This document shows, one piece after another, positions 24,001 through 53,673 of a stretch of 64,000 nucleotides of DNA. This DNA is from Tubulanus polymorphus (Eukaryota > Animalia > Nemertea), in assembly GCF_964204645.1 (NCBI RefSeq), contig NC_134025.1, positions 15,785,101 through 15,849,100 of the forward strand, read 5' to 3'. Within the stretch, counting starts at the first letter, position 1. Every line of letters starts with the position of its first letter. A model generated the notes under the pieces. The model worked only from the letters and a program-made list of their open reading frames with translations, was not told where the DNA came from and did not search any database. The position numbers and the translations under genes are program-made.

Positions 24001-27000
24001 TATCGACAATTTTATTTTTCCGATGAAACGAAATATCGACGACCAAACGTCTTTTCTCGCGCTGAACGACGCTTTCGGGCCGAAATGTGCTTTTCCAGTC
24101 GATTTGAGTGATTTTGAATGTCGACTTTTTCATTTTTTCGATGGAACCAATAATCGACGAGCAAACGTCTTTTCTCGCGCTAAACGATGTTTTCGGGCCG
24201 AAATGTGCTTTTCCCGTCGATTTGAGTGCTTTTGCGCTTCGACATTTACATTTTTCCGATAAAACGAAAAGTCGACGAGCAAACGTCTTTTCTCGCGCTT
24301 AACGACGTTTTCGGGCCGAAATGTGCTTTTCCCGTCGATTTGAGCGCTTTTGCGCTTCGACATTTACATTTTTCCGATAAAACGAAAAGTCGACGAGCAA
24401 ACGTCTTTTCTCGCGCTTAACGACGCTTTCGGGCCGAAATGTGCTTTTCCCGTTGATTTGAGTGATTTTGAATATCGACATTTTCATTTTTTCGATGGAA
24501 CCAATAATCGACGAGCAAATGTCTTATCTCGCGCTAAACGAAGTTTTCGGGACGAAATGTGCTTTTCCCGTCGTTTTGAGCGCTTTTGCGCATCGACATT
24601 TACATTTTTCCGATAAAACGAAAAGTCGACGAGCAAACGTCTTTTCTCGCGCTTAACGACGTTTTCGGGTCGAAATGTGCTTTTCCCGTCGATTTGAGTG
24701 ATTTTGAATATCGACTTTTTCATTTTTTCGATGGAACCAATAATCGACGAGTAAACGTCTTTTCTCGCGCTAAACGACGTTTTCGGGCCGAAATGTGCTT
24801 TTCCAGTCGATTTGAGCGCTTTTGCGCATCGACATTTACATTTTTCCGATAAAACGAAAAGTCGACGAGCAAATGTCTTTTCTCGCGCTAAACGACGTTT
24901 TCGGGCCGAAATGTGCTTTTTCCGTCAATTTGAGCGCTTCTGAGTATCGACAATTTTATTTTTCCGATGAAACGAAATATCGACGACCAAACGTCTTTTC
25001 TCGCGCTGAACGACGCTTTCGGGCCGAAATGTGCTTTTCCAGTCGATTTGAGTGATTTTGAATGTCGACTTTTTCATTTTTTCGATGGAACCAATAATCG
25101 ACGAGCAAACGTCTTTTCTCGCGCTAAACGATGTTTTCGGGCCGAAATGTGCTTTTCCCGTCGATTTGAGTGCTTTTGCGCTTCGACATTTACATTTTCC
25201 CGATAAAAAGAAAAGTCGACGAGCAAACGTCTTTTCTCTCTCCGAACGACGCTTTCGGGCCGAAATGTGCTTTTCTCGTCGATTTGAGCGCTTTTGCGCA
25301 TCGACATTAACATTTTTCCAATAAAAGGAATTATCGACGACCAAACGTCTTTTCTCGCGCTGAACGACGCTTTCGGGCCGAAATCTGCTTTTCCTGTCGA
25401 TTTGAGTGATTTTGAATATCGACTTTTTCATTTTTTCGATGGAACCAATAATCGACGAGCAAAACGTTTTTTCTCGCGCTAAACGACGTTTTCGGGCCGA
25501 AATGTGCTTTTCCCGTCGATTTGAGCGCTTTTGCGCATCGACATTTACATTTTTCCGATAAAACGAAAAGTCGACGAGCAAACGTCTTTTCTCGCGCTTA
25601 ACGACGTTTTCGGGCCGAAATGTGCTTTTCCCGTCGATTTGAGCGCTTTTGCGCTTCGACATTTACATTTTTCCGATAAAACGAAAAGTCGACGAGCAAA
25701 CGTCTTTTCACGCGCTTAACGACGCTTTCGGGCCGAAATGTGCTTTTCCCGTTGATTTGAGTGATTTTGAATATCGACTTTTTCATTTTTTCGATGGAAC
25801 CAATAATCGACAGGCAAATGTCTTATCTCGCGCTAAACGAAGTTTTCGGGACGAAATGTGCTTTTCCCGTCGATTTGAGCGCTTTTGCGCATCGACATTT
25901 ACATTTTTCCGATAAAACGAAAAGTCGACGAGCAAACGTCTTTTCTCGCGCTTAACGACGTTTTCGGGTCGAAATGTGCTTTTCCCGTCGATTTGAGTGA
26001 TTTTGAATATCGACTTTTTCATTTTTTCGATGGAACCAATAATCGACGAGTAAACGTCTTTTCTCGCGCTAAACGACGTTTTCGGGCCGAAATGTGCTTT
26101 TCCCGTCGATTTGAGCGCTTTTGCGTATCAACATTTACATTTTTCCGATAAAACGAAAAGTCGACGAGCAAACGTCTTTTCTCGCGCTTAACGACGTTTT
26201 CGGGCCGAAATGTGCTTTTCCCGTCGATTTGAGCGCTTTTGCGCTTCGACATTTACATTTTTCCGATAAAACGAAAAGTCGACGAGCAAACGTCTTTTCT
26301 CGCGCTTAACGACGCTTTCGGGCCGAAATGTGCTTTTCCCGTTGATTTGAGTGATTTTGAATATCGACTTTTTCATTTTTTCGATGGAACCAATAATCGA
26401 CAGGCAAATGTCTTATCTCGCGCTAAAAGAAGTTTTCGGGACGAAATGTGCTTTTCCCGTCGATTTGAGCGCTTTTGCGCATCGACATTTACATTTTTCC
26501 GATAAAACGAAAAGTCGACGAGCAAACGTCTTTTCTCGCGCTTAACGACGTTTTCGGGTCGAAATGTGCTTTTCCCGTCGATTTGAGTGATTTTGAATAT
26601 CGACTTTTTCATTTTTTCGATGGAACCAATAATCGACGAGTAAACGTCTTTTCTCGCGCTAAACGACGTTTTCGGGCCGAAATGTGCTTTTCCCGTCGAT
26701 TTGAGCGCTTTTGCGTATCAACATTTACATTTTTCCGATAAAACGAAAAGTCGACGAGCAAACGTCTTTTCTCGCGCTTAACGACGTTTTCGGGCCGAAA
26801 TGTGCTTTTCCCGTCGATTTGAGCGCTTTTGCGCTTCGACATTTACATTTTTCCGATAAAACGAAAAGTCGACGAGCAAACGTCTTTTCTCGCGCTAAAC
26901 GACGTTTTCGGGCCGAAATGTGCTTTTCCCGTCGATTTGAGCGCTCTTGCGCTTCGACATTTACATTTTTCCGATAAAACGAAAAGTCGACGAGCAAACG

Positions 27001-30000
27001 TCTTTTCTCGCGCTTAACGACGTTTTCGGGTAGAAATGTGCTTTTCCCGTCGATTTGAGTGATTTTGAATATCGACTTTTTCATTTTTTCGATGGAACCA
27101 ATAATCGACGAGCAAATGTCTTATCTCGCGCTAAACGAAGTTTTCGGGACGAAATGTGCTTTTCCCGTCGATTTGAGCGCTTTTGCGCATCGACATTTAC
27201 ATTTTTCCGATAAAACGAAAAGTCGACGAGCAAACGTCTTTTCTCGCGCTTAACGACGTTTTCGGGTCGAAATGTGCTTTTCCCGTCGATTTGAGTGATT
27301 TTGAATATCGACATTTTCATTTTTTCGATGGAACCAATAATCGACGAGTAAACGTCTTTTCTCGCGCTAAACGACGTTTTCGGGCCGAAATGTGCCTTTT
27401 GTGTGAAATGACTTTTCCCGTCGATTTGAGCGCTTTTGCGCTTCGACATTTACATTTTTCCGATAAAACGAAAAGTCGACGAGCAAACGTCTTTTCTCGA
27501 GCTTAACGACGTTTTCGGGCGGAAATGTGCTTTTCCCGTCGATTTGAGCGCTTCTGCGTATCGACAATTTTATTTTTCCGATGAAACGAAATATCGACGA
27601 CCAAACGTCTTTTCTCGCGCTGAACGACGCTTTCGGGCCGAAATGTGCTTTTCCAGTCGATTTGAGTGATTTTGAATGTCGACTTTTTCATTTTTTCGAT
27701 GGAACCAATAATCGACGAGCAAACGTCTTTTCTCGCGCTAAACGATGTTTTCGGGCCGAAATGTGCTTTTCCCGTCGATTTGAGTGCTTTTGCGCTTCGA
27801 CATTTACATTTTTCCGATAAAACGAAAAGTCGACGAGCAAACGTCTTTTCTCTCTCTGAACGACGCTTTCGGGCCGAAATGTGCTTTTCTCGTCGATTTG
27901 AGCGCTTTTGCGCATCGACATTAACATTTTTCCGATAAAACGAATTATCGACGACCAAACGTCTTTTCTCGCGCTGAACGACGCTTTCGGGCCGAAATCT
28001 GCTTTTCCTGTCGATTTGAGTGATTTTGAATATCGACTTTTTCATTTTTTCGATGGAACCAATAATCGACGAGCAAAACGTCTTTTCTCGCGATAAACGA
28101 CGTTTTCGGGCCGAAATGTGCTTTTCCCGTCGATTTGAGCGCTTTTGCGCATCGACATTTACATTTTTCCGATAAAACGAAAAGTCGACGAGCAAACGTC
28201 TTTTCTCGCGCTTTACGACGTTTTCGGGCTGAAATGTGCTTTTCCCGTCGATTTGAGCGCTTTTACGCTTCGACATTTAGATTTTTCCGATAAAACGAAA
28301 AGTCGACGAGCAAACGTCTTTTCTCGCGCTTAACGACGTTTTCGGGCTGAAATGTGCTTTTCCTATCGATTTGAGTGATTTTGAATATCGACAATTACAT
28401 TTTTCCGATTAAACGAATTATCGACGACCAAACGTCTTTTCTCGCGCTGAACGACGCTTTCGGGCCGAAATGTGCTTTTCCTGTCGATTTGAGTGATTTT
28501 GAATATCGACTTTATCATTTTTTCGATGGAACCAATAATCGACCAGCAAACGTCTTTTCTCGCGCTGAACGACGCTTACGGGCCGAAATGTGCTTTTCCT
28601 GTCGATTTGAGTGATTTTGAATATCGACTTTTTCATTTTTTCGATGGAACCAATAATCGACGAGCAAACGTCTTATCTCGCGCTAAACGAAGTTTTCGGG
28701 ACGAAATGTGCTTTTCCCGTCGATTTGAGCGCTTTTGCGCATCTACATTTACATTTTTCCGATAAAACGAAAAGTCGACGAGCAAACGTCTTTTCTCGCG
28801 CTTAACGACGTTTTCGGGCCGAAATGTGCTTTTCCCGTCGATTTGAGTGATTTTGAATATCGACTTTTTCATTGTTTCGATGGAATCAATAATCGACGAG
28901 CAAACGTCTTATCTCGCGCTAAACGAAGTTTTCGGGACGAAATGTGCTTTTCCCGTCGATTTGAGCGCTTTTGCGCGTCGTTTTTTTCATTTTTCCGATA
29001 AAACGAAAAGTCGACGACTAAACGTCTTTTCTCGCGCTAAACGTTGTTTTCGGGCCGAAATGTGCTTTTCCAGTCGATTTGAGCGCTTTTGCGCATCGAC
29101 TTTTTCATTTTTCCGATAAAACGAAAAGTCGATGAGCAAATGTCTTTTCTCGCGCTAAACGACGTTTTCGGGCCGAAATGTGCTTTTTCCATCAATTTGA
29201 GCGCTTCTGCGTATCGACAATTTTGTTTTTCCGATAAAACGAAATATCGACGACCAAACGTCTTTTCTCGCGTTTAACGACGTTTTCGGGCCGAAATGTG
29301 CTTTTCCCGTCGATTTGAGCGCTTTTGCGCTTCGACATTTACATTTTTCCGATAAAACGAATTATCGACGACCAAACGTCTTTTCTCGCGCTGAACGACG
29401 CTTTCGGGCCGAAATCTGCTTTTCCTGTCGATTTGAGTGATTTTGAATATCGACTTTTTCATTTTTTCGATGGAACCAATAATCGACGAGTAAACGTCTT
29501 TTCTCGCGCTAAACGACGTTTTCGGGCCGAAATGTGCTTTTCCCGTCGATTTGAGCGCTTTTGCGCATCTACATTTACATTTTTCCGATAAAACGAAAAG
29601 TCGACGAGCAAACGTCTTTTCTCGCGCTTAACGACGTTTTCGGGTCGAAATGTGCTTTTCCCGTCGATTTGAGTGATTTTGAATATCGACTTTTTCATTT
29701 TTTCGATGGAACCAATAATCGACGACTAAACGTCTTTTCTCGCGCTAAACGTTTTTTTCGGGCCGAAATGTGCTTTTCCAGTCGATTTGAGCGCTTTTGC
29801 GCATCGACTTTTTCATTTTTCCGATAAAACGAAAAGTCGACGAGCAAATGTCTTTTCTCGCGCTAAACGACGTTTTCGGGCCGAAATGTGCTTTTTCCAT
29901 CAATTTGAGCGCTTCTGCGTATCGACAATTTTGTTTTTCCGATAAAACGAAATATCGACGACCAAACGTCTTTTCTCGCGCTTAACGACGTTTTCGGGCC

Positions 30001-32783
30001 GAAATGTGCTTTTCCCGTCGATTTGAGCGCTTTTGCGCTTCGACATTTTCGTTTTTCCGATAGGGGGAATATTTGATACGAAAACGTCTTTTCTCGCGCT
30101 GAACGACGTTTCCGGGTCGAAAAGTGCTTTTCCTGACGATTTGAGCCCTTTTACGCATCGACATTTTCGTTCTTCCGATAGAGGGAATATTTGATAGGAA
30201 AACGTCTTTTCTCGAGCTTAACGACGTTTTCGGGCGGAAATGTGCTTTTCCCGTCGATTTGAGTAATTTTGAATATCGACTTTTTCATTTTTTCGATGGA
30301 ATCAATAATCGACGAGCAAACGTCTTATCTCGCGCTAAAGGAAGTTTTCGGGACGAAATGTGCTTTTCCCGTCGATTTGAGCGTTTTGCGCATCGACATT
30401 TACATTTTTCCGATAAAACGAAAAGTCGACGACCAAACGTCTTTTCTCGCGCTAAACGATGTTTTCGGGCCGAAATATGCTTTTCCCGTCGATTTGAGCG
30501 CTTTTGCGCATCGACTTTTTCATTTTTCCGATAAAACGAAAAGTCGACGAGCAAACGTCTTTTCTCGCGCTGAACGACGCTTTCGGGCCGAAATGTGCTT
30601 TTCCAGTCGATTTGAGTGATTTTGAATGTCGACTTTTTCATTTTTTCGATGGAACCAATAATCGACGAGCAAACGTCTTTTCTCGCGCTAAACGATGTTT
30701 TCGGGCCGAAATGTGCTTTTCCCGTCGATTTGAGTGCTTTTGCGCTTCGACATTTACATTTTTCTGATAAAACGAAAAGTCGACGAGCAAACGTCTTTTC
30801 TCTCTCTGAACGACGCTTTCGGGCCGAAATGTGCTTTTCTCGTCGATTTGAGCGCTTTTGCGCATCGACATTAACATTTTTCCGATAAAACGAATTATCG
30901 ACGACCAAACGTCTTTTCTCGCGCTGAATGACGCTTTCGGGCCGAAATCTGCTTTTCCTGTCGATTTGAAAGATTTTGAATATTGACTTTTTCACTTTTT
31001 CGATGGAACCAATAATCGACGAGCAAAACGTCTTTTCTCGCGCTAAACGATGTTTTCGGGCCGAAATGTGCTTTTCCCGTCGATTTGAGCGCTTTCGCGC
31101 TTCGACATTTACATTTTTCCGATAAAACGAAAAGTCGACGAGCAAACGTCTTTTCTCTCTCTGAACGACGCTTTCGGGCCGAAATGTGCTTTTCTCGTCG
31201 ATTTGAGCGCTTTTGCGCATCGACATTAACATTTTTCCGATAAAACGAATTATCGACGACCAAACGTCTTTTCTCGCGGTGAATGACGCTTTCGGGCCGA
31301 AATCTGCTTTTCCTGTCGATTTGAGTGATTTTGAATATTGACTTTTTCATTTTTTCGATGGAACCAATAATCGACGAGCAAAACGTCTTTTCTCGCGCTA
31401 AACGACGTTTTCGGGCCGAAATGTGCTTTTCCCGTCGATTTGAGCGCTTTTGCGCATCGACATATACATTTTTCCGATAAAACGAAAAGTCGACGAGCAA
31501 ACGTCTTTTCTCGCGCTTAACGACGTTTTCGGGCCGAAATGTGCTTTTCCTGTCGATTTGAGTGATTTTGAATATCGACTTTTTCATTTTTTCGATGGAA
31601 CCAATAATCGACCAGCAAACGTCTTTTCTCGCGCTGAACGACGCTTACGGGCCGAAATGTGCTTTTCCTGTCGATTTGAGTGATTTTGAATATCGAATTT
31701 TTCATTTTTTCGATGGAACCAATAATCGACGAGCAAACATCTTTTCCCGTTGATTTGAGTGATTTTGAATATCGACTTTTTCATTTTTTCGATGGAACCA
31801 ATAATCGACGAGCAAACGTCTTATCTCGCGCTAAACGAAGTTTTCGGGACGAAATGTGCTCTTCCCATCGATTTGAGCGCTTTTGCGCATCTACATTTAC
31901 ATTTTTCCGATAAAACGAAAAGTCGACGAGCAAACGTCTTTTCTCGCGCTTAACGACGTTTTCGGGCCGAAATGTGCTTTTCCCGTCGATTTGAGTGATT
32001 TTGAATATCGACTTTTTCATTTTTTCGATGGAACCAATAATCGACGAGCAAACGTCTTTTCTCGCGCTAAACGATGTTTTCGGGCCGAAATGTGCTTTTC
32101 CCGTCGATTTGAGTGCTTTTGCGCTTCGACATTTACATTTTTCCGATAAAACGAAAAGTCGACGAGCAAACGTCTTTTCTCTCTCTGAACGACGCTTTCG
32201 GGCCGAAATGTGCTTTTCTCGTCGATTTGAGCGCTTTTGCGCATCGACATTAACATTTTTCCGATAAAACGAATTATCGACGACCAAACGTCTTTTCTCG
32301 CGCTGAATGACGCTTTCGGGCCGAAATCTGCTTTTCCTGTCGATTTGAGTGATTTTGAATATTGACTTTTTCATTTTTTCGATGGAACCAATAATCGACG
32401 AGCAAAACGTCTTTTCTCGCGCTAAACGACGTTTTCGGGCCGAAATGTGCTTTTCCCGTCGATTTGAGCGCTTTTGCGCATCGACATTTACATTTTTTCG
32501 ATAAAACGAAAAGTCGACGAGCAAACGTCTTTTCTCGCGCTTAACGACGTTTTCAGGCTGAAATGTGCTTTTCCTGTCGATTTGAGTGATTTTGAATATC
32601 GACAATTACATTTTTCCGATAAAACGAATTATCGACGACCAAACGTCTTTTCTCGCGCTGAACGACGCTTTCGGGCCGAAATGTGCTTTTCCTGTCGATT
32701 TGAGTGATTTTGAATATCGACTTTTTCATTTTTTCGATGGAACCAATAATCGACCAGCAAACGTCTTTTCTCGCGCTGAACGA
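1..32783. repeat. Tandem satellite array, 118-bp monomer (~278 copies in the window), two main monomer types plus hybrids, higher-order repeats
   Basis: Monomer ~AAACGTCTTTTCTCGCGCTTAACGACGTTTTCGGGCCGAAATGTGCTTTTCCCGTCGATTTGAGCGCTTTTGCGCATCGACATTTACATTTTTCCGATAAAACGAAAAGTCGACGAGC repeats head-to-tail; ORF starts recur every 118 bp (524/642/760). Type B carries GAGTGATTTTGAATATCGACTTTTTCATTTTTTCGATGGAACCAATAATCG. The array ends abruptly at ...GCTGAACGA (32783). Confidence 0.99.
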
Positions 32784-33708
32784 TTATTTTATTTGCTATT
32801 CCTTCAATAGTTATTTCTACCTTTGTTATTTCAGGATTATAATAATTATCAAACTTTATTGCACCATTAGAATATGTTGCAATGGTAAAAAATATTAATA
32901 TACCTTTAATAGATCTTCTTGGGAAGTTAATATTTTCATTAATTATTTCATCATTTGCATTAATAGTTACAGTTTTAAATTTATCAATATAATCATATAA
33001 TAATGAAAATCCTTGATTGTATTGAGTTTGAATTGTGCTAGCAATATTTTCATTAGTTACCGTGTCATATTCTAAACATATATTCGATAATTTATATCCC
33101 ATATCTTTAACAACGCTAGATAATACAATTTCATTTACAGGAGCAAATGTTATCTCAAATATTATATCTTCTTGAATTACATATTTATATAAAGGTGCAT
33201 TATTATTTATCAATTCAAAGTCTAATGGAATTTTATATTTGCTTCCATAAATCATTTTAATCAAATTATCTGTGGCACGAGTTACTATTGCGTCATTAGC
33301 TCCTGATCTTAATTTATTATGGTTTTCCGATTGAATACCTTGAAATATCATATTATTTCTATTTTCTTTAGTTAACCATAAATCTTTATAATGCATAAAC
33401 AAATTATAATCATCTAATGAGAAAACTGTTTCTGGACCAATCTTTATAGTTAATTTTTTAATCAAATATCTTCCAACATTATCAACAACATAATTATTAT
33501 CATGACCAATTACTTTTATATCGGCTCATAAATAATTACTATTTGGAACATAAAAAGTATTTTGAGTTAATCTAGGAATTCTAACTTATAAAGTTTCATC
33601 GGGATTAATATTTGAAGGATTATGTGTAATTATATGATGTGATCTTTCTGCTTTAATAGCATTAGATATTCTAGAAATCTTAGAAGGACTTATATAACTC
33701 CCACTCAT
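32784..33708 (-). pseudogene. Major capsid protein (Polinton/adintovirus hexon-like), two in-frame stops, C-terminus cut by the satellite
   Basis: ATG at 33708 (TAAATG) is in frame with ORF 32629..33465: MSGSYISPSKISRISNAIKAERSHHIITHNPSNINPDETL*VRIPRL...VVDNVGRYLIKKLTIK...YKIPLDF...IFEITFAP...YKLSNICLEYDTV...NINFPRRSIKGILIFF...YNPEITKVEITIEGIANK. This resembles animal Polinton MCPs as recalled. The ORF then runs into satellite sequence. Confidence 0.75.
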
Positions 33709-33728
33709 TTATTTAACAAAAAAATTAA

Positions 33729-35165
33729 TTATTTATTTCTAATCATATTCACTAACCCAAAAATAATAGCACTTACAACTGTAATTAAAAATAAAATAAT
33801 ATGTTCAGCAGCAAAGTTAATAATATTCCCTGCAGATTTCAATATAAAACCAACAATTGATGCAATAACTCCTGGTAAAGCTGCAGCAGATTTTTTAGAT
33901 AGTTCCCATAAATATTTTGCTAATTTCTTTAAACCATCCTTAACTTTATCTTGTATAGAATTATTATCATTCGGGGGTTTATCTGGTTTATTTGGAGTAG
34001 GAGTAGATTTCAAAGCATTTGATATTGCTAAACCTATTGTTGTAAATACCATAGTTAGAGTTGTTAGAATTGAAAGAATTGTTATACCTTCTAGTTTAAA
34101 TAATAATTTTATTCTATCTTTTAATGATATTTTAGAATTTGGTTTTATCAACAAATCTTTAAAAACATCTTTTAATCTTTTAAAATTATTACCAAATTCT
34201 TTTAATAATATATCTCTTTCACCTTTCAGTACTTCTAAATTATCTTTTAAATTATTAATTTCTTTTTTTAAACATGATTCTTTTTGTCTATATTCCATTT
34301 CATCAATTACTTGACGATCAAGATCAGACTTTAATTGTTCTATTTCTTTATTTTATCAGTTAATTCTTTTTCTAAATTGTTAATTTTAATATCTCTTTTA
34401 CTTTTTTCATGCGCAATTTTATCAGCTGATTCTTTCATACCTATAATTTCTCTACGTGTTTGTTCAGGATATGCTTCTAATTCATCATCAGTTAAATCAA
34501 GTAATCCCTTCGTTAAAAGTTTTTCAGTTTGAACTTCAGTGTTTGATTTAAGTTTACTAGTTTTGGAATTATCAGCTTCTTTAGGAATTTTTTTTTGTCT
34601 TAAATTTTCATTAATTATCTTAAAAAATTTAGCATTTCTTTGTTTAAATTCTTTTATATTATCATCTCTTTCTTTTTGTGTAACATCAGTTATAACATCA
34701 TTAATGATTTTCTTAATTCTATCTGGTTTAAATAAATTAAAAGTTGATTGTGTTATTATTTTATCGTTACTTTTAAGATTTGAAATCTTAAAATAATAGT
34801 TGCCTTTCAATTTCCAATAATAATCGCCATTTAAATATTTCAAATCTTCTACTAAATAATCCATACCTTTATTTGTTATATTGAAACCAGATCTTTTTAA
34901 CATTGGTTTAAAATCACTAGCAATTTCATTATATTTTAATTTTTTTTTCTCATTCTGGTACTTCATTTTGAATATCTATTCTCGATTTAGCTCCTCTAAT
35001 ATATTCATCTGTTGATGGGGTTTTAGAACCAGCAACAACTTCTGGTAAATTAGTATTATATTCTGGCTCATTATCATCATTAAAACTTGTTTCACTAAAA
35101 TCAGGTTGTTGTTCATCACTTATACCGGGTTCATCTAAAGGATCCAATGGAATTTCTTCATCCAT
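33729..35165 (-). pseudogene. Polinton protein with acidic N-terminus, coiled coil and C-terminal hydrophobic/amphipathic helices; frameshifted
   Basis: ORFs 34950..35165, 34340..34966 and 33729..34298 are consecutive with only one TAAATG start (35165). The C-terminus has GITILSILTTLTMVFTTIGLAIS and LPGVIASIVGFILKSAG...IILFLITVVSAIIFGLV. A homologous segment lies at 61433-62290. Confidence 0.65.
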
Positions 35166-36387
35166 TTATATAATAAAAAAATTTAAAATATAATATTCCT
35201 CCGATTACAATTCCTATACAAGTTAAAGCTAATTTAGCATTTTCATGGGATTTATTATCATCATTTAGTTTAATCATATCATGTTGAATATTATCAGTTT
35301 TTATATTTTCTGTAGTATTGTAATCTTTTATTTTAGAATCATTATTTAATTTAATATTTTTAGTTTTAGTTTCAGTTGATTGAATATGTTTTTTATTTTT
35401 TTCACCTTCCATTAATTTTGGAGCAGTGATAATCTTTTTATTTATATCATTCAATCCAAATGAATTATCTATTGTTGCAGTTTTAATTAGATTATTGTAA
35501 CCAATTATATTTCCCATTTTTAAAACTAAATCATTAGAAATAATTAATAGATTAGGGCCTATACAATAATTTAATCTAATATGTGATTTATCTAAATAAT
35601 TTTGATATCTTACAATGTTTTCTGGAATAGATCTATTTTTATCATTATGAATGGAATCTTCAAATAAAACTTTGAATTGTTTCTGCGCATCGAATGAAGT
35701 GTTATCATTTCCAATCATTGGGGATCTTGTTTCAATTTGCGCACCTAAAATACATATCAAATAAGTTCTAATAGATTGATTTATTCTTTGTATACCAGCT
35801 TTAGTAAAACCTTCACTATTTTCTAAAATGAAATTAACCCAACCATTATTGTTTTGTTGTTGTATATTATTATAATATTTTGGTAATTCATTCCAATTTA
35901 GTGTTCTTATATCTGAATTTGTTATTATTTTTCCAAATTCTTTAGTATATAATATTCCTAATCCGCCCATTGTTCCAATTTTTGCTCTAAAATCTTTATT
36001 TGAATTAATATTAAATTCATTACATATTTTATAAAACTTAGAAAAATTAATATTATTATTCAATTCTTTAAAATATTTTGAACCTGGTAAAGGACATTCT
36101 AATTCATCTAATATTAATTTTATTTGAAAATAAGTATATATTCGTTCATATTAGATTTTAATAACCATTGTTTTGACTCATTCAAATTTTTGAAATTAAT
36201 TGTATACACATGAAATATATTCCATCTTTACATGAAAATTATTACTTTCAGTAACATAAATATATAAATCAATTAATGAATTTAAAACTTCATTTCTATA
36301 TGTAATATCTTTATTAAAATCTATTGCTGGAATATCATATTTAATTGATTTATTATATTGGAAAGCTTTTGGAAAACTATCTGCCAT
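35158..36387 (-). pseudogene. Polinton protein of unknown function with C-terminal transmembrane helix; disrupted near 36060-36200
   Basis: TAAATG start at 36387 (MADSFPKAFQY...), continuing as ORF 35158..36063 (INQSIRTYLICILGAQIETRS, DAQKQF, RYQNYL, GYNNLI) and ending AKLALTCIGIVIGGILYFKFF. A homolog lies at ~60660-61430. Confidence 0.7.
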
Positions 36388-36388
36388 T

Positions 36389-36862
36389 TATATAATTAAA
36401 AAATTAATAATTTATTAATTCTTTTAATAATTTATCTTGTTCTTCAACTGTTATATGGCCATTTAAACTTATTATATAATCTAGTGTATTCTTTAATTTA
36501 TTAATCTCTTTTATATTAGTTTTAATTTTTTCTTTATTACTTTTTATATTTAATTTTGAACTTATACCAGTTAAAACACTTGAACTTAATCCTCACACGC
36601 CAATTGATATAGCTAAAGGTGTTAATGGACTGAATATTGCTAGAAATGTTATTACAGAACTAATTGTAACCGAACAACTTATAATAAAATAATATATAAT
36701 TTAATAATAATATAATAATATATAATTACTTTTTAAATATTTTTTCTTTTTTATCTTTAAGTCACTTTCAAATTCTAATATTTGTTTTTCTAAATATATT
36801 TTTAATTTAGTTTTATTTATATCATGAGGAATAATATCAATACTATCAACTTTATCTTCCAT
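36389..36862 (-). pseudogene. Small Polinton ORF with central hydrophobic segment, disrupted
   Basis: TAAATG start at 36862 (MEDKVDSIDIIPHDINK...); the downstream frame reads ...TPLAISIGV*GLSSSVLTGISSKLNIKK**...; several stops and frameshifts. Confidence 0.45.
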
Positions 36863-36880
36863 TTATTTAGAAAAAAATTA

Positions 36881-37303
36881 CTAATTAGTAAATTTATATG
36901 CTACAAATATAACAATAACTGTTCCACCTAAAATCCAAATTATTTCATATTTCTGTTGTTCTTTACTTGGGGTATAATAATCTGATAATTTAGGTTTGTA
37001 TAGATGTAATTTGTCTTTATTGGTTACCGCGTTATATAAACTCATTGCATCATCGACTGATTTAAAATCTCTATGTGAAATCTTCTGATCATATAATTCC
37101 TTGTTAATATAATCCATATAGTTTTGTCGTTTTTCTCTGTATTCTTCTGCTGCTTTATTGTATTTCTCTAATGCTAAGTTATGTCTTTTTTGTTCTGTTA
37201 ATGATCCATTTTTATCAATATGCTTAAATAAATAACCACCACCAGTAAATGCTAAAGCGTTAACAATTGCCGATCCTATAATAGTTATAACTGCAGAAGC
37301 CAT
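36881..37303 (-). CDS. Polinton small membrane-associated protein (140 aa)
   Basis: Intact ORF with TAAATG start; N-terminal hydrophobic MASAVITIIGSAIVNALAFTGGGYLF, a coiled coil, and C-terminal TM IIWILGGTVIVIFVAY. Confidence 0.7.
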   Translation of the reverse strand: MASAVITIIGSAIVNALAFTGGGYLFKHIDKNGSLTEQKRHNLALEKYNKAAEEYREKRQNYMDYINKELYDQKISHRDFKSVDDAMSLYNAVTNKDKLHLYKPKLSDYYTPSKEQQKYEIIWILGGTVIVIFVAYKFTN

Positions 37304-37327
37304 TTATTTAGTAAAATAATTATGCAT

Positions 37328-37549
37328 TTATATGGGAGGAATATATTTTTGTTTTTCTAAATAATCAATAGTTAAATTAGATAAAGTAACTGCTAACGTT
37401 AATTTTAAAATATCATTGATATCAAATCTATCAACATTAACACTTCCCATTTTGAATACTTTTTTTCATACCATTGAATAACCAACAGTTACAACTGATA
37501 GTAATGCGCCATTATATAATCCAGTTATTATCCACTTATTATCACTCAT
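37328..37549 (-). pseudogene. Small hydrophobic Polinton protein (~73 aa) with one internal stop; absent from the ORF track
   Basis: TAAATG start at 37549: MSDNKWIITGLYNGALLSVVTVGYSMV*KKVFKMGSVNVDRFDINDILKLTLAVTLSNLTIDYLEKQKYIPPI*. Confidence 0.6.
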
Positions 37550-37891
37550 TTATTTATCAAAAAAATTACTATCATCAAAATATTTAGTTATCTTAGTGAT
37601 GATTAAATCAACATTTATTTCATTACTACTTTTATGATTATCATATATTTTGGTTAATATGTTTTTAATATCATCAATAATTCCATCTTCATTTAATTCA
37701 TAATATTCTAAAGGTGATTTAATTAAATCAATTACTTTTTCTATATTATAATTTTCTTTATTAATCATTGATGCATCGTTAAATGATTTACTTTTTATAT
37801 CAGTAATTACATCATTTAGTTTAATTCTCATTTCTTTACCATGTTTAAAATCAAACCCAAAACATATACTCGGTCCAACAGTTATATTCAT
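37550..37891 (-). CDS. Polinton hypothetical protein (113 aa)
   Basis: Intact ORF preceded by TAATTTTTTTCACTATATAAATG and packed against both neighbours. Confidence 0.6.
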   Translation of the reverse strand: MNITVGPSICFGFDFKHGKEMRIKLNDVITDIKSKSFNDASMINKENYNIEKVIDLIKSPLEYYELNEDGIIDDIKNILTKIYDNHKSSNEINVDLIITKITKYFDDSNFFDK

Positions 37892-37908
37892 TTATATAGT
37901 GAAAAAAA

Positions 37909-38662
37909 TTACTCTCTACATCTTATAACTAATTCATAAATTTCAGGGAAATTATTTAAATCAATTAAGTATCCATTGTGATTTCTAATTTCTAATCTAA
38001 AATTATTAAAACGAGGAATGCATGGTTTGAAATCACATTCTGTTAAATTATAATTTATTTGCGTTCCAAATTCTTTAACATTCTTCAATGGTAAAATGTT
38101 TAGTAAACCAGAATTACAAGTTATATCTTTAGTTGCTTCGAATGTTTTTGTAGGATCGATTAAATTGCAATAAATATAAAAATGTGTGTAAGGTATTAAG
38201 TTTGGTGTAGCATCAACATTTGAATAAAGTTTATCTGGTGTAATTCCTAACAGTTTAGCTATAGGTTTTTTAACTATAAATTGATATTTTTCACTACGAG
38301 TTAACCTAATCCTTATTTTATCAGAACTATCACTTTTTAAAAATCTAATACTAAACCCGGAATTACTACCTAATTTTTTGCCAGGCTTTTCTATCAATTT
38401 CTTGTGACAATGTATCTAAATTATATAACCCTGGTTTTAGATATAAATGATACCTTTTATTTTTTTCCTGAACTATAAACAATTGATGATCAATAGTTTT
38501 ATCCGTTATATTATAAAAAGAATTACATAAACTTATATTAACTAATTTTAAATCTACACAATTCTTAAATTCTCTATCTAATTGAACTAATAAATTATGT
38601 GATTTATAATTTGTTAGTCTTCTTGAATCAACAAATATTCTGTATTCTTTTAATTCTACCAT
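37909..38662 (-). pseudogene. Minor capsid (penton-like, single jelly-roll) protein, frameshifted near 38380
   Basis: ORFs 38366..38662 plus 37909..38397: IFVDSRR...SHNLLVQL...NSFYNIT...PGLYNL / HFYIYCNLID...LLNILPL...FRLEIRNHNGYLIDLNN...ELVI, the motif pattern of Polinton/virophage minor capsid proteins. Confidence 0.7.
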
Positions 38663-38730
38663 TATTTATAACATAAAAAAATTACCACTCATCACTAAAA
38701 ATTAATTTAAATAAAATTTTTCCTAAATAA

Positions 38731-40625
38731 ATGGATGAGAAGATAGCATGCGAAATTTGTGGTGAACTTCTAAGAAAAAGTAATATGGCTCGACATATGA
38801 AAAAACATGATGAAAATTATAAACCCCCTAAACTAAACTGTCCAAAATGTAATAAATTATTCTCAAGAAATTATGTTAAAAAACATTCAGAGAAGTGTAA
38901 AATTAATGGTGCAACGGCTAATGTTGATAGTAATGAAAGTAATAGTAATTCTGTTGAAGTTGAACCTGAAATTATTTGGAAAAGACCTTTCTTATTCTAT
39001 GACAAGGATAATATAAAAGATCATATCTGCGAGCCTTGTCGAATGAAATTAACCCTTTCGCTGCGTACACGCTTGCACCGCCCCCTACGTAAGGTATTTT
39101 CCGAAAAATTCGATTTTTTTCAAATTGTTTTTAACCCCGATTTTTCGCGTTTTTATCGAAGATTATGATGTTATTTAGTGAAAATCAGTAAAAAATCATA
39201 CCAACAGCCTTTTCTGTAGGGGGGGCGTGTTGGGGGGGGGGGGGTCAGGATGGGTTAGAAATTTTTTTTTTTCAGTTTTTCACCCAAGTGCCTATCTCAG
39301 TCTTTGGTGATTGATGATACGGTGTGGATGAAAGAAATTCAATTGATATGGGATATCCTTTTCCGCTGGTAGAGGTACGTAAGTGGGGAGCCATCTCAAT
39401 CCCGCGCAAATTACCATGTGCTCAACAGGCTGACAGCACCAACTACTGACGCATTTTCGCCATCTGTTGTTTAGAAAGCTAACTATCTTGTCTTACATGC
39501 GTTTCCATACTGTTTGCTGTGTACGCGTTCGAGTTATAAATCAATAGGTGCATGACGTTTCTACAACGTCATACGCACAGCACGTGTCACTCATATGACG
39601 TTTCCAAAACGTCACACGTAGCGAAAGGGTTAAGTCCTGAAAATATAGAAGATTGGGAGAATCATCAATTTCGTAAAGCACATATAGATAAAATTTCTAA
39701 TAAATTTGAAACTGAATTCAATGAAAGAAAAAATAGTTTATTAGAAAAAATAAAATATGAGAAAACGTTACCAGATAATAAAGAAACAGTTGAAAAGTTA
39801 GATAAACAATATAATGAATTAACAAGAAAAACATATTATTGTAAATATTGTAAATTGATTATTACAACAAGTAATTCAAATCTACATAATAGAACAATAA
39901 AACATAAAGAAAACGTAAGAAAATACCAGGAGCTTAATGAAGATCTATTACCTATAAATTATAAACAAAAATGCCCACAATGTAATTATGCGACCTTAAG
40001 GCAAGAAGGTACTGTGTTATTTTGTAATGAATGTGGATGGCAAAAGAATTTATGGGGTGAAGAAAAAACTAGAGATTTTCTCATAGAACCAAAATTAAAT
40101 TATCTAGATGAAATTTTTAAAATATTTTCTATAGAAGATCATACACAAGAATATAAGCAATGGCTTGAAAAAATAGAAATAGAAAATAAAAATGGTGAAA
40201 TAACTAAAAAAGATATTATAAAATCAATTATTCCATCAACATTTAACACAAAACAAAAGAAAATGTATTTATATTTATTATTTAATGATTATTATGAAAA
40301 ACCTAAATAAACAGAAGAAGATATGAAAATTATAAAAAAAATATTCAAACAAATATTAATGTATCATTTGGAAAATAGAATAACAGATTCAATAAATTAT
40401 GAATTCTTTTTAAATAAGATTGTAAATTATTTAAACATAGATATTATAATTCCATTTGATGAATTAACAAACAAAAAGAAACAAAGAGAGCGAGATGAAA
40501 TGTGGAACAAGATAGAACTTTATTTAAATGAGAAAAATGAAATGGAAGAAGAACCTAAACAATTAAATGAAAATGAAGAAGCCAATAGTGATTTCGAGTA
40601 TGATGATATTGATTTTATGTTTTAA
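38731..40625 (+). pseudogene. Multi-zinc-finger Polinton protein, interrupted by a piggyBac-type MITE and one nonsense codon
   Basis: Fingers CEICGELLRKSNMARHMKKH, CPKCNKLFSRNYVKKHSEKC, CKYCKLIITTSNSNLHNRTIKH and ribbon CPQC..CNECGW. Removing 39053-39629 plus one TTAA joins ORF 38731 to ORF 39552 in frame (CEPCRMKL|SPENIEDWENHQFRKAH). ORF 40323..40625 is in the same frame 12 nt after the stop at 40310. Confidence 0.75.
39053..39629. mobile_element. Non-autonomous piggyBac-type element (577 bp)
   Basis: TTAA on both sides (39049-39052, 39630-39633); terminal inverted repeats CCCTTTCGCTGCGT / ACGTAGCGAAAGGG; clean removal restores the host reading frame. Confidence 0.9.
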
Positions 40626-43600
40626 TGACCATAAGGTAATGTTTTTATACCATCATCTAAAATATGCCTTTTATCATCAAATGGATTCAAACTAGTTTTT
40701 TCAACTTCATTAATGTACATCTCGTGATCTTCTGATCTTAAACAATTCATTTTGTGTTTCATTACAATTGATTTATATAAACACTTTATATAATCTTGAA
40801 ATTCTATATGTTTATCAACCACATGTTTTGTTATTCCTTTTAACTTTTTAGCTTCATGATCTTTTGTTCTATAACTATACATTTTACTTCTTATCCCAAC
40901 AAATTCAATCATTTCATCACCCCCTAGTTCATCTTTAAATTTACCAGGAATCTTTTTATTATCATTGCTAAATAGTTCATGATCTTTGGGATAATTGCTA
41001 AAATCAAAATGATGTTTTAATGTTTTTAAGTCTTTTGTTATGTCATTTGTCTTGATTCTTAGTATGTACGCGTCAGTATTGAAGCAAATTAATGAAAATC
41101 CACTGTTAAATGTACCATCTTCAGTTGATAAATCATAAAGATAATCTGATGGGTTATATATTTCAAATAAATCTTTAACTTCTTCAGCTAAATCTTTTTC
41201 TGTGTGGCTTAAATTAAAGCAATTTGGTTTAGATTTAATCAATCCAATATTCATATTAAAGCCTAATGAATTACATAATATATTTAACCCTGATATAGCA
41301 ACTTTTCCTTTTTGAGCTGAAGATATTGTTTTGAAACTTTTTGAACCATCTGCTGCATAGAATCCAATGAAGAACCATTTTCTTAAATTATTTTTTGCAT
41401 TTAATACATAATCTGGTACTATCTTTTCTTTAGTTGAAGTATTACTTTTCACTATTGCATGAATATAGAATTCGTCATTATATTCTATAGCAAAATCTTT
41501 AGGATTATTCACATGTATTCTTTAACATTGCGATGATTTCATAACATCTATGATTTTAAAACTTTGTGCGAATAAACTTCTTCACAGAATTTCTTAATTC
41601 TTTCTAATAATTTTAAGTCTTGATTGCATAAATACCAACAATATTTATTGCCCCAAACATAATTATACACACCTGCTGAACCATCTCCCATGAAAAATCC
41701 TTTGATAAAATATTCTTTTTCTTCTAATGTTTCAGGTTCTATATTATAAATATTATCAATAATTTCATCAAATGACATATAATTCATCCTTTGGAAAAAT
41801 CTTTTATGTAATAATTCATCACCAATTTTTATATCAGTTGGTTTTATTTCATCGCCATTTCGTTTAATTAAACTATGATCTTCTGTAACATCAACGAACC
41901 CTAATTTAGTTCTAACTCTATAGATTTTCTTATTTGTTTTATGTCTAATAATATTCTTTAATTTTTTCCATCCATTTCTTGTCCAAACATCCATTAATCC
42001 ATTTATTTGTATTAATTCTTTTTCACCATATGAAATATAACATTCATTTTGTTTTGGAATTATTTCTGAAATTCTTCTTATCAATATTTTTTCATTACAT
42101 TTTAATAATATTGGGGTGTCAGCTGTTACAGAATCAAAATATAATATTTCCATATGCTTTTCCCCAAAAAGTGGTTGTAAAACATTATAATAAAAATCAT
42201 ACATTAATAATTTTGATACTTCTAAAACAGTTGAACCAATGAATATAGGTTTATTAAATTTCATTGACGTTCTTTTTAATTTAACTGCTGTTAAATAATC
42301 TTCAAATCTTTTATTTCCTAAATGTCTAGGACTTGATTGTAAATGTCTTAATCGTTCAGAATTATTTACTAATTCAATATCATTTCTATTTCTAATATTT
42401 TCACATGTTTTACCATAAAAACTATTATTCATTAATTTGAAGAAATCTTTTTCAAAATCTGTTTTTGATATTGTTCTCTGTTGAGTATTGAAATCTATAT
42501 ATTTTTCTAACCACTTCGATTGATTAAATTCAATATATCTATGTACTTTCTTTAATTTCATTCCTTGTTTTAGATAAAATTTTAACATTCTATAATGAAC
42601 AATATAATCGTATTTATTATTTTGAGTAAGTATTAATTTTTCTGTAAAAACATGATCTTTCGGTTTTATTTTCTTCTGGTATTCACTTAAATAACTATCA
42701 TCTACAGTTAAATGTTCTGGGCAATAAGGTTAGTTTCTTGTTTCAGGATATTCTAAATCAACTACAAAGAAATAACCAATTGGTGCTTCATCTTTTAAAC
42801 TCGCAATTGCGCTTTCCCAATCAGTTTTATCATCATTTTCAACTTCTGTTAATATAAAATTTTTGTATGGTTGAGGTTGCATCATTGCCCAGCCATATAA
42901 ATTATTGGCGTCAATATATAATAATTTATATTCATCATTTGCTTTAAAATACCTATCTCCCATAACACCACTAATTCCACCTCTAATTGATTTTTCAAAT
43001 AATAAAACCATATCTGGTTCTTTTAATAAATCTAATTCTACATTTGTATATTTTAAACCACATTGCCAGGTTAAACCAGGACTTGAGTAGCAATAACAAG
43101 GATCAACATTAAAATGATTCAAATTAACTTCTCTAAATTTTTCAAATATGTCAGCCAATATCATCACATCTGATTTTAAATATAAATCAACTAATTCACC
43201 ATGATTTTTCATCTTAAAATGGTTCCAAATATTTAATGTTCTATTAAACACTTCGTCTTTCACATACTCGTCTTTTAATTGATCATAAAATTGATCTTTT
43301 AATAATTCTGTTACATTAAAATCATTGTGTATTTTATAAAATGAATAAGGAATTGCGCCTCTATATCTCAATAATTTAAAATCTTGGTCATTTGGATAAT
43401 AATACCAAGTTATAACAAAATCATTACCAACTAAACTTTTTGATAAATTATCTAATGAACGTGCTAGAAATCTATAAGAATCTAAAAATCTAATGCAACC
43501 AAATTGAAATGAAATATAATTTTCAGATGTTTTAGCTAATAGTTTAAAATCATATTTTCTTACATTTACACCATTCATAGCATTATATTCTTCTATTTCT

Positions 43601-45652
43601 TGATTAATTGAACCCAATTTCCTTGATAATTGTTTTATAAATAGATGGGTATCATAACCTGATAAATTATGAAATAATATTGGTACGAAATTAACTTTCT
43701 AAGCTTGTAAATTGCAATCTTCATGAGCAGCTCCACGATATTTTGAATTTAAATGATCATGATCTCTAACTTTTTTATCAAATGAATAAAAACGTTTTTC
43801 ACAATAACAACAATGAGTTGCATAATTAAAATCAATTTCATCTTCTTTTGTCATAACAATTCTTTTATTTTTGTTTAATAATTTTGCAAAATCACTTTCT
43901 AATTCAATCATTTTATCACAAAAATCATTAACTACATTTTCACCTCTAAAAGAAATATATTGACTTTCATATAATTCAGGATAATTTGATTTTATATAAA
44001 TTCCATAAGCAGCAGCTCTTTGATGAACTTTTTTAATTGTATTTATAATTGGTGGGTCTTGTATTGTGTCTTCATTTAATTCATTTCCTTTATCCATTGA
44101 TTTTAATAATTGCTTTTTGTTATATATTTCTTTTCTATCTTGATCAGTCAATTCTTTATTCAACGATTCAAAATCCCCATAAATTACAAATGGAACAATA
44201 TTCTTAAATTTATGATTAGTAAATTTCAATTTATAATCTTTTTCTGTTGGCATTATTAATTTACAAAAATCTTTATTATCACATAATTCTTTATGTTTTA
44301 ATAATGTATTCTCAGTCATAAATTTAGATAAACATTTTCTACATAGATAAATTTCATTATGGTGATCACTTTCTGTTCTAAAGAATAAATCAATTTGTTT
44401 GAACCACATATAATGTTCATTTTCATCTTTTTTGTAATATAACAAATCTATAGCATTTTCATCATCATAATATTCTGTTAAATATAAAGCTTCCAATGTA
44501 TAATCTTTAATATTTTCAACTTTTGTCTTTGGTAATTGCATTAATTCAAATACATTTATTTTTAAATTATTAACTTTTTCTATTTTAGGAATCATTTTTA
44601 TAGTTACTGGATATTGATCAATTTTATATAATGTTTCATATTTCCGGTAATTTGTTATTCTACAAACATTTTCCTGTGTTGGATGTAAGCAACTAATAAT
44701 TGACCATAGAAAACATTTATTATCTTCATTTTGAATATTTATTACTGCTTTTGTTGTAAATGGTAATTTAATATAAGATGATGCTTTAATATCCTTTTCT
44801 GTTGTAAAGTTTGAATCATTTTAAAACATTTTATTACTTTTTGAGGTTTTATTTCTTTTTGTATTGTAAACATTTAAATCTGAATATATAATTTCATTCA
44901 ATGTTAAGCCAGAACCCTCAAAATATCTTCCTTCAATATGACGTTTAAATTCATTAAATATTTTTTCTAACTTCTCTTTTATTTGTGTTTTTGAAATTAT
45001 TTCTTCAGAGTGTGTTTGAATATTATAATTCATTTTTTCTTCTGACTTTATAAAACTTACTTTCCCAGAGATACTAATTTTTGGATATTCAACATCTGTT
45101 ATCAAATCTAGTATTTTTTCTATTATTTCATTAAATGTACTATAATCTTCTATTGTTGTACCTTTAAAAAATCTAAATATAATAGCTGCAGGACCAATTT
45201 TACTATGTAATGTTTCTAAAATTTCAATTGTATCTTTTATTTCTAGTGAATCAATAAAATTTCTAACATTTTCCATGTAAGGTTTATTTGAAATGGATTT
45301 AGTTTTTGAAGTTGATTTTTTACTTTTTGAGGTTTATCATTAAAATAATCTTTTCCTAAAACATTATTACTCAAATTTTGATGGTGTTTTTCTGTTTCGA
45401 GATGTATGTTATAATTGCTTTTTGTTATAAATTCATCACAAACTTCACATTTTATTTCATCCACATTCATATTTTCTAATCTTTCTTTTCTTTCATTGGA
45501 ATTTTCTGGAGTTTTAAAATCTATTACATATGATTTGCAGTTTTTTCATGTCGTGATTTTTGGGATTTATCGATGTACTTTTTACAATATTGGCAATAAT
45601 ATTGATTTTTATTAACATTATTGTTTACTGGCTGTTGTTCATTTTCCCCCAT
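40622..45652 (-). pseudogene. polB: Protein-primed family B DNA polymerase (pPolB) with N-terminal Zn fingers, vOTU-like and EndoVII-like domains; intein-containing; several stops and frameshifts
   Basis: TAAATG start at 45652 (YYCQYCKK..RHEKTANH; CEVC..HLETEKHH). OTU-like NIQNEDNKCFLWS (~44700-44740) with EHYMWF; ExoI IYGDFES; CCYCEKRF..VRDHDHLNSKYRGAAHEDCNL; ExoII IFHNLSGYDTH; FLDSYRFL; ExoIII YLKSDVMILAD; motif A YIDANNLYGWAM; motif B FKLMNNSFYGKT; motif C YFD^TDA split by the intein; KKLKGI near the end. Confidence 0.95.
41078..42132 (-). other. Intein with LAGLIDADG homing endonuclease in pPolB motif C (pol-c site); ~352 codons, one frameshift and one stop
   Basis: N-junction ILYFD|SVTADTPILLK (Ser1, codon 42132-42130); block B FVDVTEDHSLI (TxxH); block C YFIKGFFMGDGS (~41677-41713); block E WFFIGFYAADGS (~41343-41378); blocks F/G YLYDLSTEDGTFNSGFSLICFN|TDAYIL (Asn codon 41080-41078, +1 Thr). 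Removal gives YFDTDA, equivalent to the YxDTDS catalytic motif. Confidence 0.93.
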
Positions 45653-45736
45653 TTATTAGGGAAAAAAATTACTTGTGGTGATGAGTGGTGTCTCGACCTT
45701 CGACCTCTGATCTGAAAACCTACTTTTCCCATTACT
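45653..45736 (-). repeat. Probable Polinton terminus / terminal inverted repeat (partner end missing)
   Basis: Minus strand AGTAATGGGAAAAGTAGGTTTTCAGATCAGAGGTCGAAGGTCGAGACACCACTCATCACCAC lies between the pPolB start and the BEL RT junction. Inverted-repeat status cannot be confirmed without the other end. Confidence 0.5.
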
Positions 45737-47012
45737 CAATTTGTATGTTGATAATCTGATTTTGAGCACAAAAAGAGTTTCAGCGCCCAAGATATTTCAT
45801 GAATCTCGAGAAATCCTGTATAATGGATGATCTAACATGCGTTCGTGGTCATCAAATGATTGCACCGTCAACGAGTTATCTGACATTGAAGGCGTATCTA
45901 GTGGTAAGATGATGATATATTAGGCATAAAATGGTCCATTCATTACGATCATTTATCGCATACAGATATCAACTTACGTACAAACTCGGCTAATTCAATT
46001 ACTAAACGGCAAATCGTCAGCGATACATCTAAAATGTATGATCCGCTCGGTATTTTTGCACCAGTTACAGTTACAGCAAAAATATTCATCCAAGAATTGT
46101 GGCAATCAAATATCGGTTGGGATGATCCAATTTTGGATGAGAGGCGAGATATTTGGTGTAAGTTGGCTAACGAAATTAGGGCTGTGGCGAAATTGTTCAT
46201 AAATCGCCAGTATTTCATGATAAAAGAGTTCACTACTACCGATGTCACATTAAACGTATTTGCGGATGCCAGTGAGCGAGCATACGGTGCGGTAGCCTTT
46301 CTGTGCTCCAGTAATCAAACATCTCTGTGTATGGCAAAGTCACCAGTAGCACCGATGAAAAAATTATCGGTGCCTAGATTAGAATTATTGTCAGCTACAA
46401 TAGCAGCTAGACTTGTCAAACATATTCGTAGTTCCTTGGAAAATCGTTTAGGTAATATTCGAACGTATATTTGGTCCGATAATCAAGCAGTTTGGAATTG
46501 GTTTTCTTCTCCAAAGATACAACAAAGCGTGTTCGTTGCGCGACGTCTAAATAAGATTAATGAGAGTACACGTGATTGCGTGTGGCGTTATTGTTGTTCG
46601 AAAGATAATCCGGCGGATTTACTTTCACGCGGGTGTTCGGTATCTCAACTATTGGAGTCCGAATTATGGCGGAAAGGTCCCCCTTGGTTAGTTTCTGGTG
46701 ACGTTCTACCAGAAAGTTTGCGAAAAACTTGCTCGTTCGCAAATATCTGCATCGTTAATCCAGTAGTTGAGAGGCCGAAAATCGATGAGTTCGGAATACA
46801 TAGAATTATTGACTTCAAGAGGTATTCAAGTTTGAACAAATTGTTGGATGTAACTGTTGCTGTACGTCGATTCATAGAAATTATTCTGAAGTTGCCTCCA
46901 TCAAATTATTTTGAATTGCTGAAGTGGAGCAGAATTCAATGAATACTTTTATCTCAGATCACTATGTATCCGATTGAAATCAGTTAATTGGAAGCTGGTA
47001 ATCGCAATAGCT

Positions 47013-49355: not shown

Positions 49356-49508
49356 AAACTAATTCACCAATGTGTGTCTTGTAAACGAAGCAGTGGGCAC
49401 TCTTATCAATGATACTGTCAAGTTAGATCAATGCTACGTTCATTCATTTAGAATTGGTGACGGATATGTCCGTACCGACCTTTCTTTTGGCACATCGAAG
49501 GTTTATAA

Positions 49509-53049: not shown

Positions 53050-53394
53050 AGGAATTCGCGAACAACGATGGGCCTGATTTTAGATGACCCTTTGCCCATT
53101 TGGTGGGCAACATCGCTGACCATGCTGGTCTCCATTTTATCTCGCGGCACTTTTATGTTGTCTACGAAGAAGTCGGTTGCTACTTTTCGGCAATTTTCGC
53201 CAGTTTCTTCCTCCATGTTGAAAATGACAACGTTCCTTTGCATCGATCTGCGTTTTAGATCGATGTTTTCTTGGTAGAGCTGCTCGATTTTAAGCTCAGC
53301 ACGTTCGAGACGCCAATTCAACCCGTTTGTCATGTCCAGAAGTTGAAATATTTGGTCATTGTTGGGTACTGTTGGCTGCAGGTCATTTTGCAGA
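53050..53394 (-). pseudogene. LINE ORF1-like fragment (coiled coil plus RRM-type)
   Basis: LERAELKIEQLYQENIDLKRRSMQRNVVIFNMEEETGENCRKVATDFF...VAHQMGK..KIRPIVVR matches the pattern of LINE ORF1 (L1/transposase_22-like) proteins. Confidence 0.65.
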
Positions 53395-53668: not shown

Positions 53669-53673
53669 CGCAG

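Follow-up and report, generated by a model that had tools for sequence, protein, structure and literature searches.

Among the described systems closest to the locus studied here is the family B DNA polymerase (PolB) of Mimivirus, which carries an intein at the pol-c allele, YGD/TDS, the slash marking the insertion point (Ogata 2005, PMC549080). According to the passages of Green 2018 (PMC5784728) covered here, inteins occur in four families of large DNA viruses, including invertebrate iridoviruses, with DNA polymerase as the commonest viral host; the same passages and four supplement files give zero inteins for Metazoa and make no mention of Polintons. The absence of inteins from metazoans is repeated in PMC8529194 and serves reviews as the basis of drug-target arguments (PMC8529194, PMC5784728). 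Integrated viral DNA polymerases with inteins have been reported from Klebsormidium, Tetrabaena and a labyrinthulid (Gallot-Lavallee 2023, PMC10710043), in an article whose available text and two supplement files do not contain the words polinton, animal or metazoa. In Polintons, an HNH insert has been described in the protein-primed PolB (Jeong 2023, PMC10748475), in an article whose available text has no occurrence of intein, LAGLIDADG, Hint or homing, and Krupovic 2024 (PMC11071308), citing Jeong 2023, suggested that the endonuclease inserts of Polinton polymerases stem from intein invasions. The word intein does not occur in the available portions of Starrett 2021 (PMC8502044) or of PMC11296320, and those of PMC12220804, PMC3671162, PMC5718144 and PMC13768754 contributed general content only.

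Here we analysed a 64,000-nucleotide stretch of a Tubulanus polymorphus contig (NC_134025.1), hereafter the window. A first-pass annotation had proposed a LAGLIDADG intein at the pol-c site of the protein-primed PolB of an endogenous Polinton/adintovirus-like element, acquired by a jump from the RNA-primed polymerase class and carried into an animal chromosome. The intein, its site, the jump and the animal setting were borne out by the evidence below; its view of the intein as a single instance was not, since the same intein was found in several other protein-primed PolB families.

The insert in motif C and its host polymerase

The polymerase motif YFD/TD is interrupted on the minus strand by a 1,055-nt insert (42132-41078), a length one base off whole codons (Table 1). 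One frame gives ILYFD/SVTADTP...TEDH...GFFMGDGS and another gives GFYAADGS...YDLST...CFN/TDAY; the class 1 intein residues (Ser1, block-B TxxH, terminal Asn and +1 Thr) are all present, and two LAGLIDADG helices with their catalytic acids are recognizable from the motifs of the window and in the relatives. The N-terminal half scores 33.9 bits with TIGR01445 (cut-off 24.5), and its PDB sequence matches are PI-PkoII and 9hth, an entry named DNA-directed DNA polymerase. The window's scores with the Pfam models Intein_splicing and LAGLIDADG_3 both fell under cut-off, C-terminal intein models had no match in the window or in eight relatives, and the residue preceding the terminal Asn is Phe in the window and His, Lys or Ser in seven relatives. 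The predicted structure of an intact relative, P0004 (pLDDT 83, pTM 0.85), matched TliVMA (E 5e-18), PI-PkoII, PI-PfuI, PI-SceI and I-DmoI; the Hint fold, which the annotation had put forward for checking, is predicted for the family from this model and for the window from TIGR01445. An intein-free relative, P0159, aligns across the two flanks of the insert with zero residues lost, and intein-free relatives have nothing at the site between YxD and TD. A spliceosomal intron was ruled out, as the coding-strand ends are not GT-AG and the skipped form is present in DNA. Judging from its sequence, the insert is, with near certainty, a real intein.

The window copy itself is dead and cannot work, being broken by the frame change and the stop that the annotation had noticed; reads of sister copies lack this stop. 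The host gene is a pseudogene, with stops at 44821, 43699, 42730 and 41522 and about three frame changes (near 45480, 45290 and 41565). Its extein upstream of the intein matches PF03175 over cut-off (E 7e-16), and across its main stretches it is 66-75% identical to the intact, empty P0159; a PDB sequence search with the window polymerase gave no match. From the PF03175 scores, the window polymerase likely belongs to the divergent Beta class, and P0007, discussed below, likely to the Alpha class.

Table 1. Coordinates of the features of the window and the evidence for each
Feature	Position	Strand	Evidence
Satellite array, 118-bp unit, abutting the truncated capsid gene	1..32784		277 overlapping matches, spacing 118-119 nt
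Polinton-like element, AT-rich, multicopy, left end lost	32785..45900		Reads, gene starts
Likely gene for the major capsid protein, truncated at 32785 by satellite DNA	32785..33708	-	PF16903, E 0.003, under cut-off
VLTF3-like late transcription factor gene, zinc fingers, one breaking stop	39636..40625	+	PF04947, 27.5 bits (cut-off 25)
Protein-primed family B DNA polymerase, pseudogene (host gene of the intein)	40622..45652	-	PF03175
Intein in motif C (YFD/S...N/TD): Hint and inner two-motif LAGLIDADG endonuclease; broken	41078..42132	-	TIGR01445, motifs, empty-site reads
Intein, N-terminal half: Ser1, block A, TEDH, first LAGLIDADG motif GFFMGDGS	41578..42132	-	TIGR01445
Intein, broken stretch: frame change near 41565, stop 41522-41524	41522..41577	-	Motifs, reads
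Intein, C-terminal half: second LAGLIDADG motif GFYAADGS, YDLST block, terminal Asn	41078..41521	-	Motifs; LAGLIDADG_3, E 0.018, under cut-off
BEL/Pao retrotransposon fragment, low-copy host DNA adjoining the element	45908..46942	+	PF05380, E 2e-45

The annotation had suggested looking for intein-plus and intein-minus alleles, and both were found in raw DNA reads that bear the same species label (run X5, from a different sample and study; about 12% of the run examined). Precisely 41078-42132, i.e., 1,055 nt, is omitted by 21 reads (15 starts), and a further 42 reads (26 starts) omit an equal length, net of nine differing flank letters, giving at least 63 X5 reads in all with the exact empty site; a contig from run X1 likewise has the empty form. 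Read depth in X5 was ~580 in the flanks vs ~214 in the intein (ratio 0.37), so that roughly a third of copies carry the intein, with the caveat that flank depth may include distant intein-free families. Forty of 371 variable places were listed, 33 of them in the intein, and the three at the breaks were excluded. Third codon positions accounted for 15 of the 20 listed intein variants common at 15-90% frequency (p 0.0002) and for two of the eight listed places where the window differs from >90% of reads. Shared variants thus favour third positions and window-specific ones do not, so that the intein frame was under selection within the family while the window copy decayed.

The surrounding element and its genomic setting

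Reads and contigs show the element to be integrated and multicopy in a eukaryotic genome, with a depth relative to the BEL/Pao fragment of ~39x for the element and ~15x for the intein. As the window copy is a dead fragment, its Polinton membership rests on the polymerase, the weak capsid match and the copy number. No rve integrase, packaging ATPase or maturation protease was found among the scanned element ORFs of this copy, which is cut at 32785, and neither terminal inverted repeats nor a target-site duplication was found in the window, where the left end of the element is missing. Loose read ends at 32785 indicate that other element copies continue past this point. A PDB sequence search with the capsid gene product gave no match, and a PHROGs search of the element ORFs returned weak matches only.

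Several further features of the window were recorded. A conserved open frame of the element (330 codons, 35161-36150, minus strand) has no Pfam, PHROGs or Atlas match, and an insert of ~585 nt at 39050-39635 in the window copy is skipped by reads and contigs of other copies. Another fragment of the element family, in inverted orientation and more decayed, occupies 60688-62222 and is 71-90% complementary to 34358-35905. Sequence like that of the satellite is found again near 53330-53700, and two inverted repeats of 243 nt (49492-49734 and 51638-51880), 93% complementary and 1.9 kb apart, likely represent a non-autonomous DNA transposon.

Eight gene starts of the element, including those of the capsid and the polymerase, have a T-run and then TAAATG (33708, 35165, 36387, 36862, 37549, 37891 and 45652 (-), and 38731 (+)). 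In 300 shuffles such starts numbered 1.0 on average and never more than 5, for a pattern that was picked after seeing the sequence; the eight are among 37 TAAATG sites, and a shorter T-run precedes a ninth, at 37303. These starts presumably resemble poxvirus late promoters. Taken with the VLTF3 gene, they suggest that the element depends on a helper large DNA virus, which would have given the intein a chance to jump; this is the weakest step of our argument.

Relatives, origin and spread of the intein

A search with the N-terminal half of the window intein found 215 longer proteins, of which the best 120 were examined. The top match, P0001, is an open protein-primed PolB of 1,693 aa with an intein at the identical site; window and P0001 are 65% identical in their inteins and 58% in their exteins. 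Further protein-primed carriers among the matches listed are P0007, P0152, P0153, P0162, P0163 and the P0003/P0004 and P0006 families. All seven intact relatives examined retain Ser1, TxDH, the two LAGLIDADG acids, Asn and +1 Thr, and LAGLIDADG_3 is over cut-off in 6 of 7 intein-bearing relatives. The polymerase relatives of P0001 (n = 120) comprise 110 with contiguous xxDTD, five with an intein and five that were unscorable. An intein-free polymerase of the window's subclade, P0175, is labelled Sulfurimonas sp. and is probably a mis-binned eukaryotic element.

In a search with P0006 among 50%-representative proteins, 59 of 150 matches had a recognizable intein start; those that could be classified were of the RNA-primed type, and only the partial P0453 resembles another protein-primed carrier. 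Intein scans found 17 loci in viral contigs and 37 in metagenome contigs, none of these 54 with a protein-primed extein, and the scans thus showed no intact carrier element within its genomic surroundings. The same intein family also occurs in type II topoisomerases (P0008, P0065, P0074, P0080, P0090, P0092, P0098, P0099, P0101 and P0117), at DQD/TDG (in one case DAD/TDG), which is another D/TD metal-binding motif. By its sequence contexts, the family may target the D/TD motif in unrelated enzymes.

The insertion point, YxD/TD(S) of a family B polymerase, equals the Mimivirus YGD/TDS position given in the available part of Ogata 2005 (PMC549080), and the intein is related to others at that site. 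Protein-primed and RNA-primed inteins are 40-49% identical overall (41-49% in most pairs), whereas the exteins are only 19-30% identical. A first intein tree had 42 rows, and a further one was rooted on seven topoisomerase inteins, with archaeal pol-c inteins left out of the intein trees. In the rooted tree, the eight protein-primed inteins lie within the RNA-primed PolB inteins (branch 100/96); seven of the eight form one clade (100/100), and P0162 stands apart with weak support. A single clade of all eight was neither shown nor rejected by an AU test (p 0.06) from which 12 of the 42 rows, long branches or near-copies, had been dropped. P0007 lies inside the 100/100 clade although its exteins share only 20-32% identity with those of the other carriers, and so implies a second jump from one class of polymerase to another. 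The source of the intein was likely an RNA-primed, giant-virus-type polymerase, although the nearest donor branch is weakly supported (83/65) and the giant-virus assignment of the RNA-primed hosts comes from IMG/VR contigs (three of them labelled giant-virus MAGs) and the available part of Ogata 2005 (PMC549080).

Two readings would take the intein, or the animal, out of this account. The insert might be a non-splicing nuclease domain retained in the polymerase, like the HNH/VSR inserts of nematode, oomycete and mollusc Polintons. Nuclease inserts in Polinton polymerases are indeed already known, and the window copy lacks the penultimate His; the authors of the HNH study reportedly describe a VSR insert as well. 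This insert, however, divides the catalytic YxD/TD, where a retained domain of 350 residues would very likely block catalysis, the predicted Hint fold and the splicing residues are conserved, and precise empty alleles are present, so that we give this reading hardly any credence. Alternatively, the element could come from a protist symbiont or contaminant, or the contig could be chimeric, leaving the intein outside the animal genome; the closest polymerase relatives do often sit on short contigs, one of them labelled Sulfurimonas. Against this, contigs without differing letters link the element end to the BEL/Pao fragment (45680-47043, run X1; 45829-46667, run X3). These short-read contigs, spanning element and host DNA, confirm the join but not its independence, because both runs may be sources of the assembly; the second sample and study, X5, has the element at the depth given above. 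Among the best 120 matches of the BEL/Pao fragment, all 40 with an organism name are animals, the group is described as metazoan in the available part of PMC3118150, and the named relatives of the window polymerase are Pinctada, Sycon and Gigantopelta. A non-animal origin is thus very improbable, and the host of the element is almost certainly an animal.

The distribution of the intein bears on how it spread. In the extein tree, the eight carrier rows amount to eight changes, seven of which are imposed by starred branches; the exteins nearest to that of the window (74%) are empty. In cluster P0152, seven carriers (1,537-1,539 aa) and three empties (1,191-1,193 aa) show differences at only 1-16 of the 891 residues far upstream, and 12 of 12 fixed differences between the two kinds fall inside -7..+44 of the site; in cluster P0162 (three carriers, two empties) 3 of 3 lie 10 residues or fewer from it, and in cluster P0006 (three carriers, one empty) 0 of 3 are near it. 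These are protein-level counts with at most 15 members listed per cluster (for P0152, 7 plus and 3 empty of 136), and they leave out P0284, a divergent empty, and P0279, which has no site motif. Such a local footprint fits co-conversion during homing and equally the recombining in of a resistant empty patch, and it does not give the direction. The empties of P0152 and P0162 also differ from the carriers at the site itself (YFD/TDAM vs YMD/TDSF and LTD/TDST vs FTD/TDSL, respectively), as cut-resistant alleles would.

Against frequent homing count the agreement in outline of intein and extein trees in the main class (the window with P0001; P0006 with P0153) and the persistence, under the same species label, of empty alleles with closely similar flanks. 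One could therefore suppose a single ancient gain in the ancestor of the polymerase subclade, followed by vertical descent and many precise losses through recombination with empties, with splicing kept and homing rare or over. The matching trees are as this supposition would have them, as are the similar intein and extein identities of several pairs (e.g., P0152 and P0003, 66% vs 67-70%), and the footprint could also be a cut-resistant empty patch entering a carrier family. The carriers are scattered, however, with as many changes as carrier rows; separate transfers are needed for P0007 and probably for P0162 (although a single clade is not rejected by the AU test); the two endonuclease acids are retained in 7 of 7 relatives; and the inteins of the window and P0001 are closer than their exteins. 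We regard an old gain with losses as unlikely. It is instead probable, from sequence comparison, that a pol-c intein entered a Polinton-type polymerase, likely from an RNA-primed giant-virus-type polymerase, and likely homes among Polinton genomes.

Starting from what is observed directly (the insert, the empty alleles, the breaks of the window copy, the identities and the trees), homing would proceed as follows. An intact copy, judging from its motifs and predicted fold, would splice via Ser1, the block-B His, the terminal Asn and +1 Thr, and the YxDTD active site would thereby be rebuilt. Once released, the LAGLIDADG domain would cut empty YxD/TD alleles, whose repair from a carrier would bring in the intein together with part of its flanks, as the footprint in the relatives suggests. 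The first jump would likely have taken place in a cell that hosted both a Polinton-like virus and a large DNA virus, and integration would bring the intein into animal chromosomes. A bolder scenario, which we entertain only tentatively and would not favour, has a giant-virus intein in both major Polinton polymerase classes, homing among animal-germline copies as a natural endonuclease gene drive, with virophage-like entry, at which the VLTF3 gene and the common TAAATG starts hint, and an undiscovered large DNA virus of the animal.

Comparison with known systems

No report of a Hint-type intein in a Polinton polymerase was found in the full-text literature covered here, a scope that leaves outside most subscription papers, Repbase and InBase, where an earlier mention may exist. 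The pol-c allele is known; the polymerase class and the host kingdom are new as far as this literature goes. The novelty suggested in the first-pass annotation survives in narrower form, because inteins in integrated viral DNA polymerases had already been reported from algae and a labyrinthulid. What the locus adds is an intein of the splicing type, with an endonuclease domain, that resides in the multicopy DNA of what is very likely an animal, although the gene that it interrupts is viral and not one of the host's own. This intein would record gene flow from large DNA viruses to Polintons and across two polymerase classes, and it is relevant to the question of whether Polintons of animals and helper viruses occur in the same cells. 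The coexistence of alleles with and without the intein makes homing inside animal nuclei directly testable.

The intein resembles that of Mimivirus PolB in its site, its Ser1/Asn/+1 Thr chemistry, its LAGLIDADG domain and its length of about 351 residues, as far as the available part of PMC549080 describes it; the likeness is by description, the sequences compared being PF00136 polymerases and IMG/VR contigs. Unlike in Mimivirus, the host here is the protein-primed polymerase of a small integrating element. The Klebsormidium, Tetrabaena and labyrinthulid cases, in the available part of PMC10710043, likewise involve viral DNA polymerases that contain an intein and lie on nuclear scaffolds, with viruses proposed as carriers, but their hosts are not animals. 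Invertebrate iridoviruses are a parallel in that animal-infecting viruses are able to carry inteins, although, in contrast to Polintons, the four intein-bearing families in the covered passages of PMC5784728 are all large DNA viruses. With the Polintons/Mavericks and adintoviruses of Starrett 2021 (PMC8502044, available portions), the element shares a protein-primed PolB, a probable capsid gene and multiple copies in an animal genome, but the truncated window copy differs from them in having no detected integrase, ATPase, protease or terminal repeats. Finally, as with the nuclease inserts of Polinton protein-primed polymerases (PMC10748475, PMC11071308, available text), a foreign nuclease domain lies inside the polymerase; unlike the HNH insert, the family represented in the window has a predicted Hint domain, splicing residues and empty alleles.
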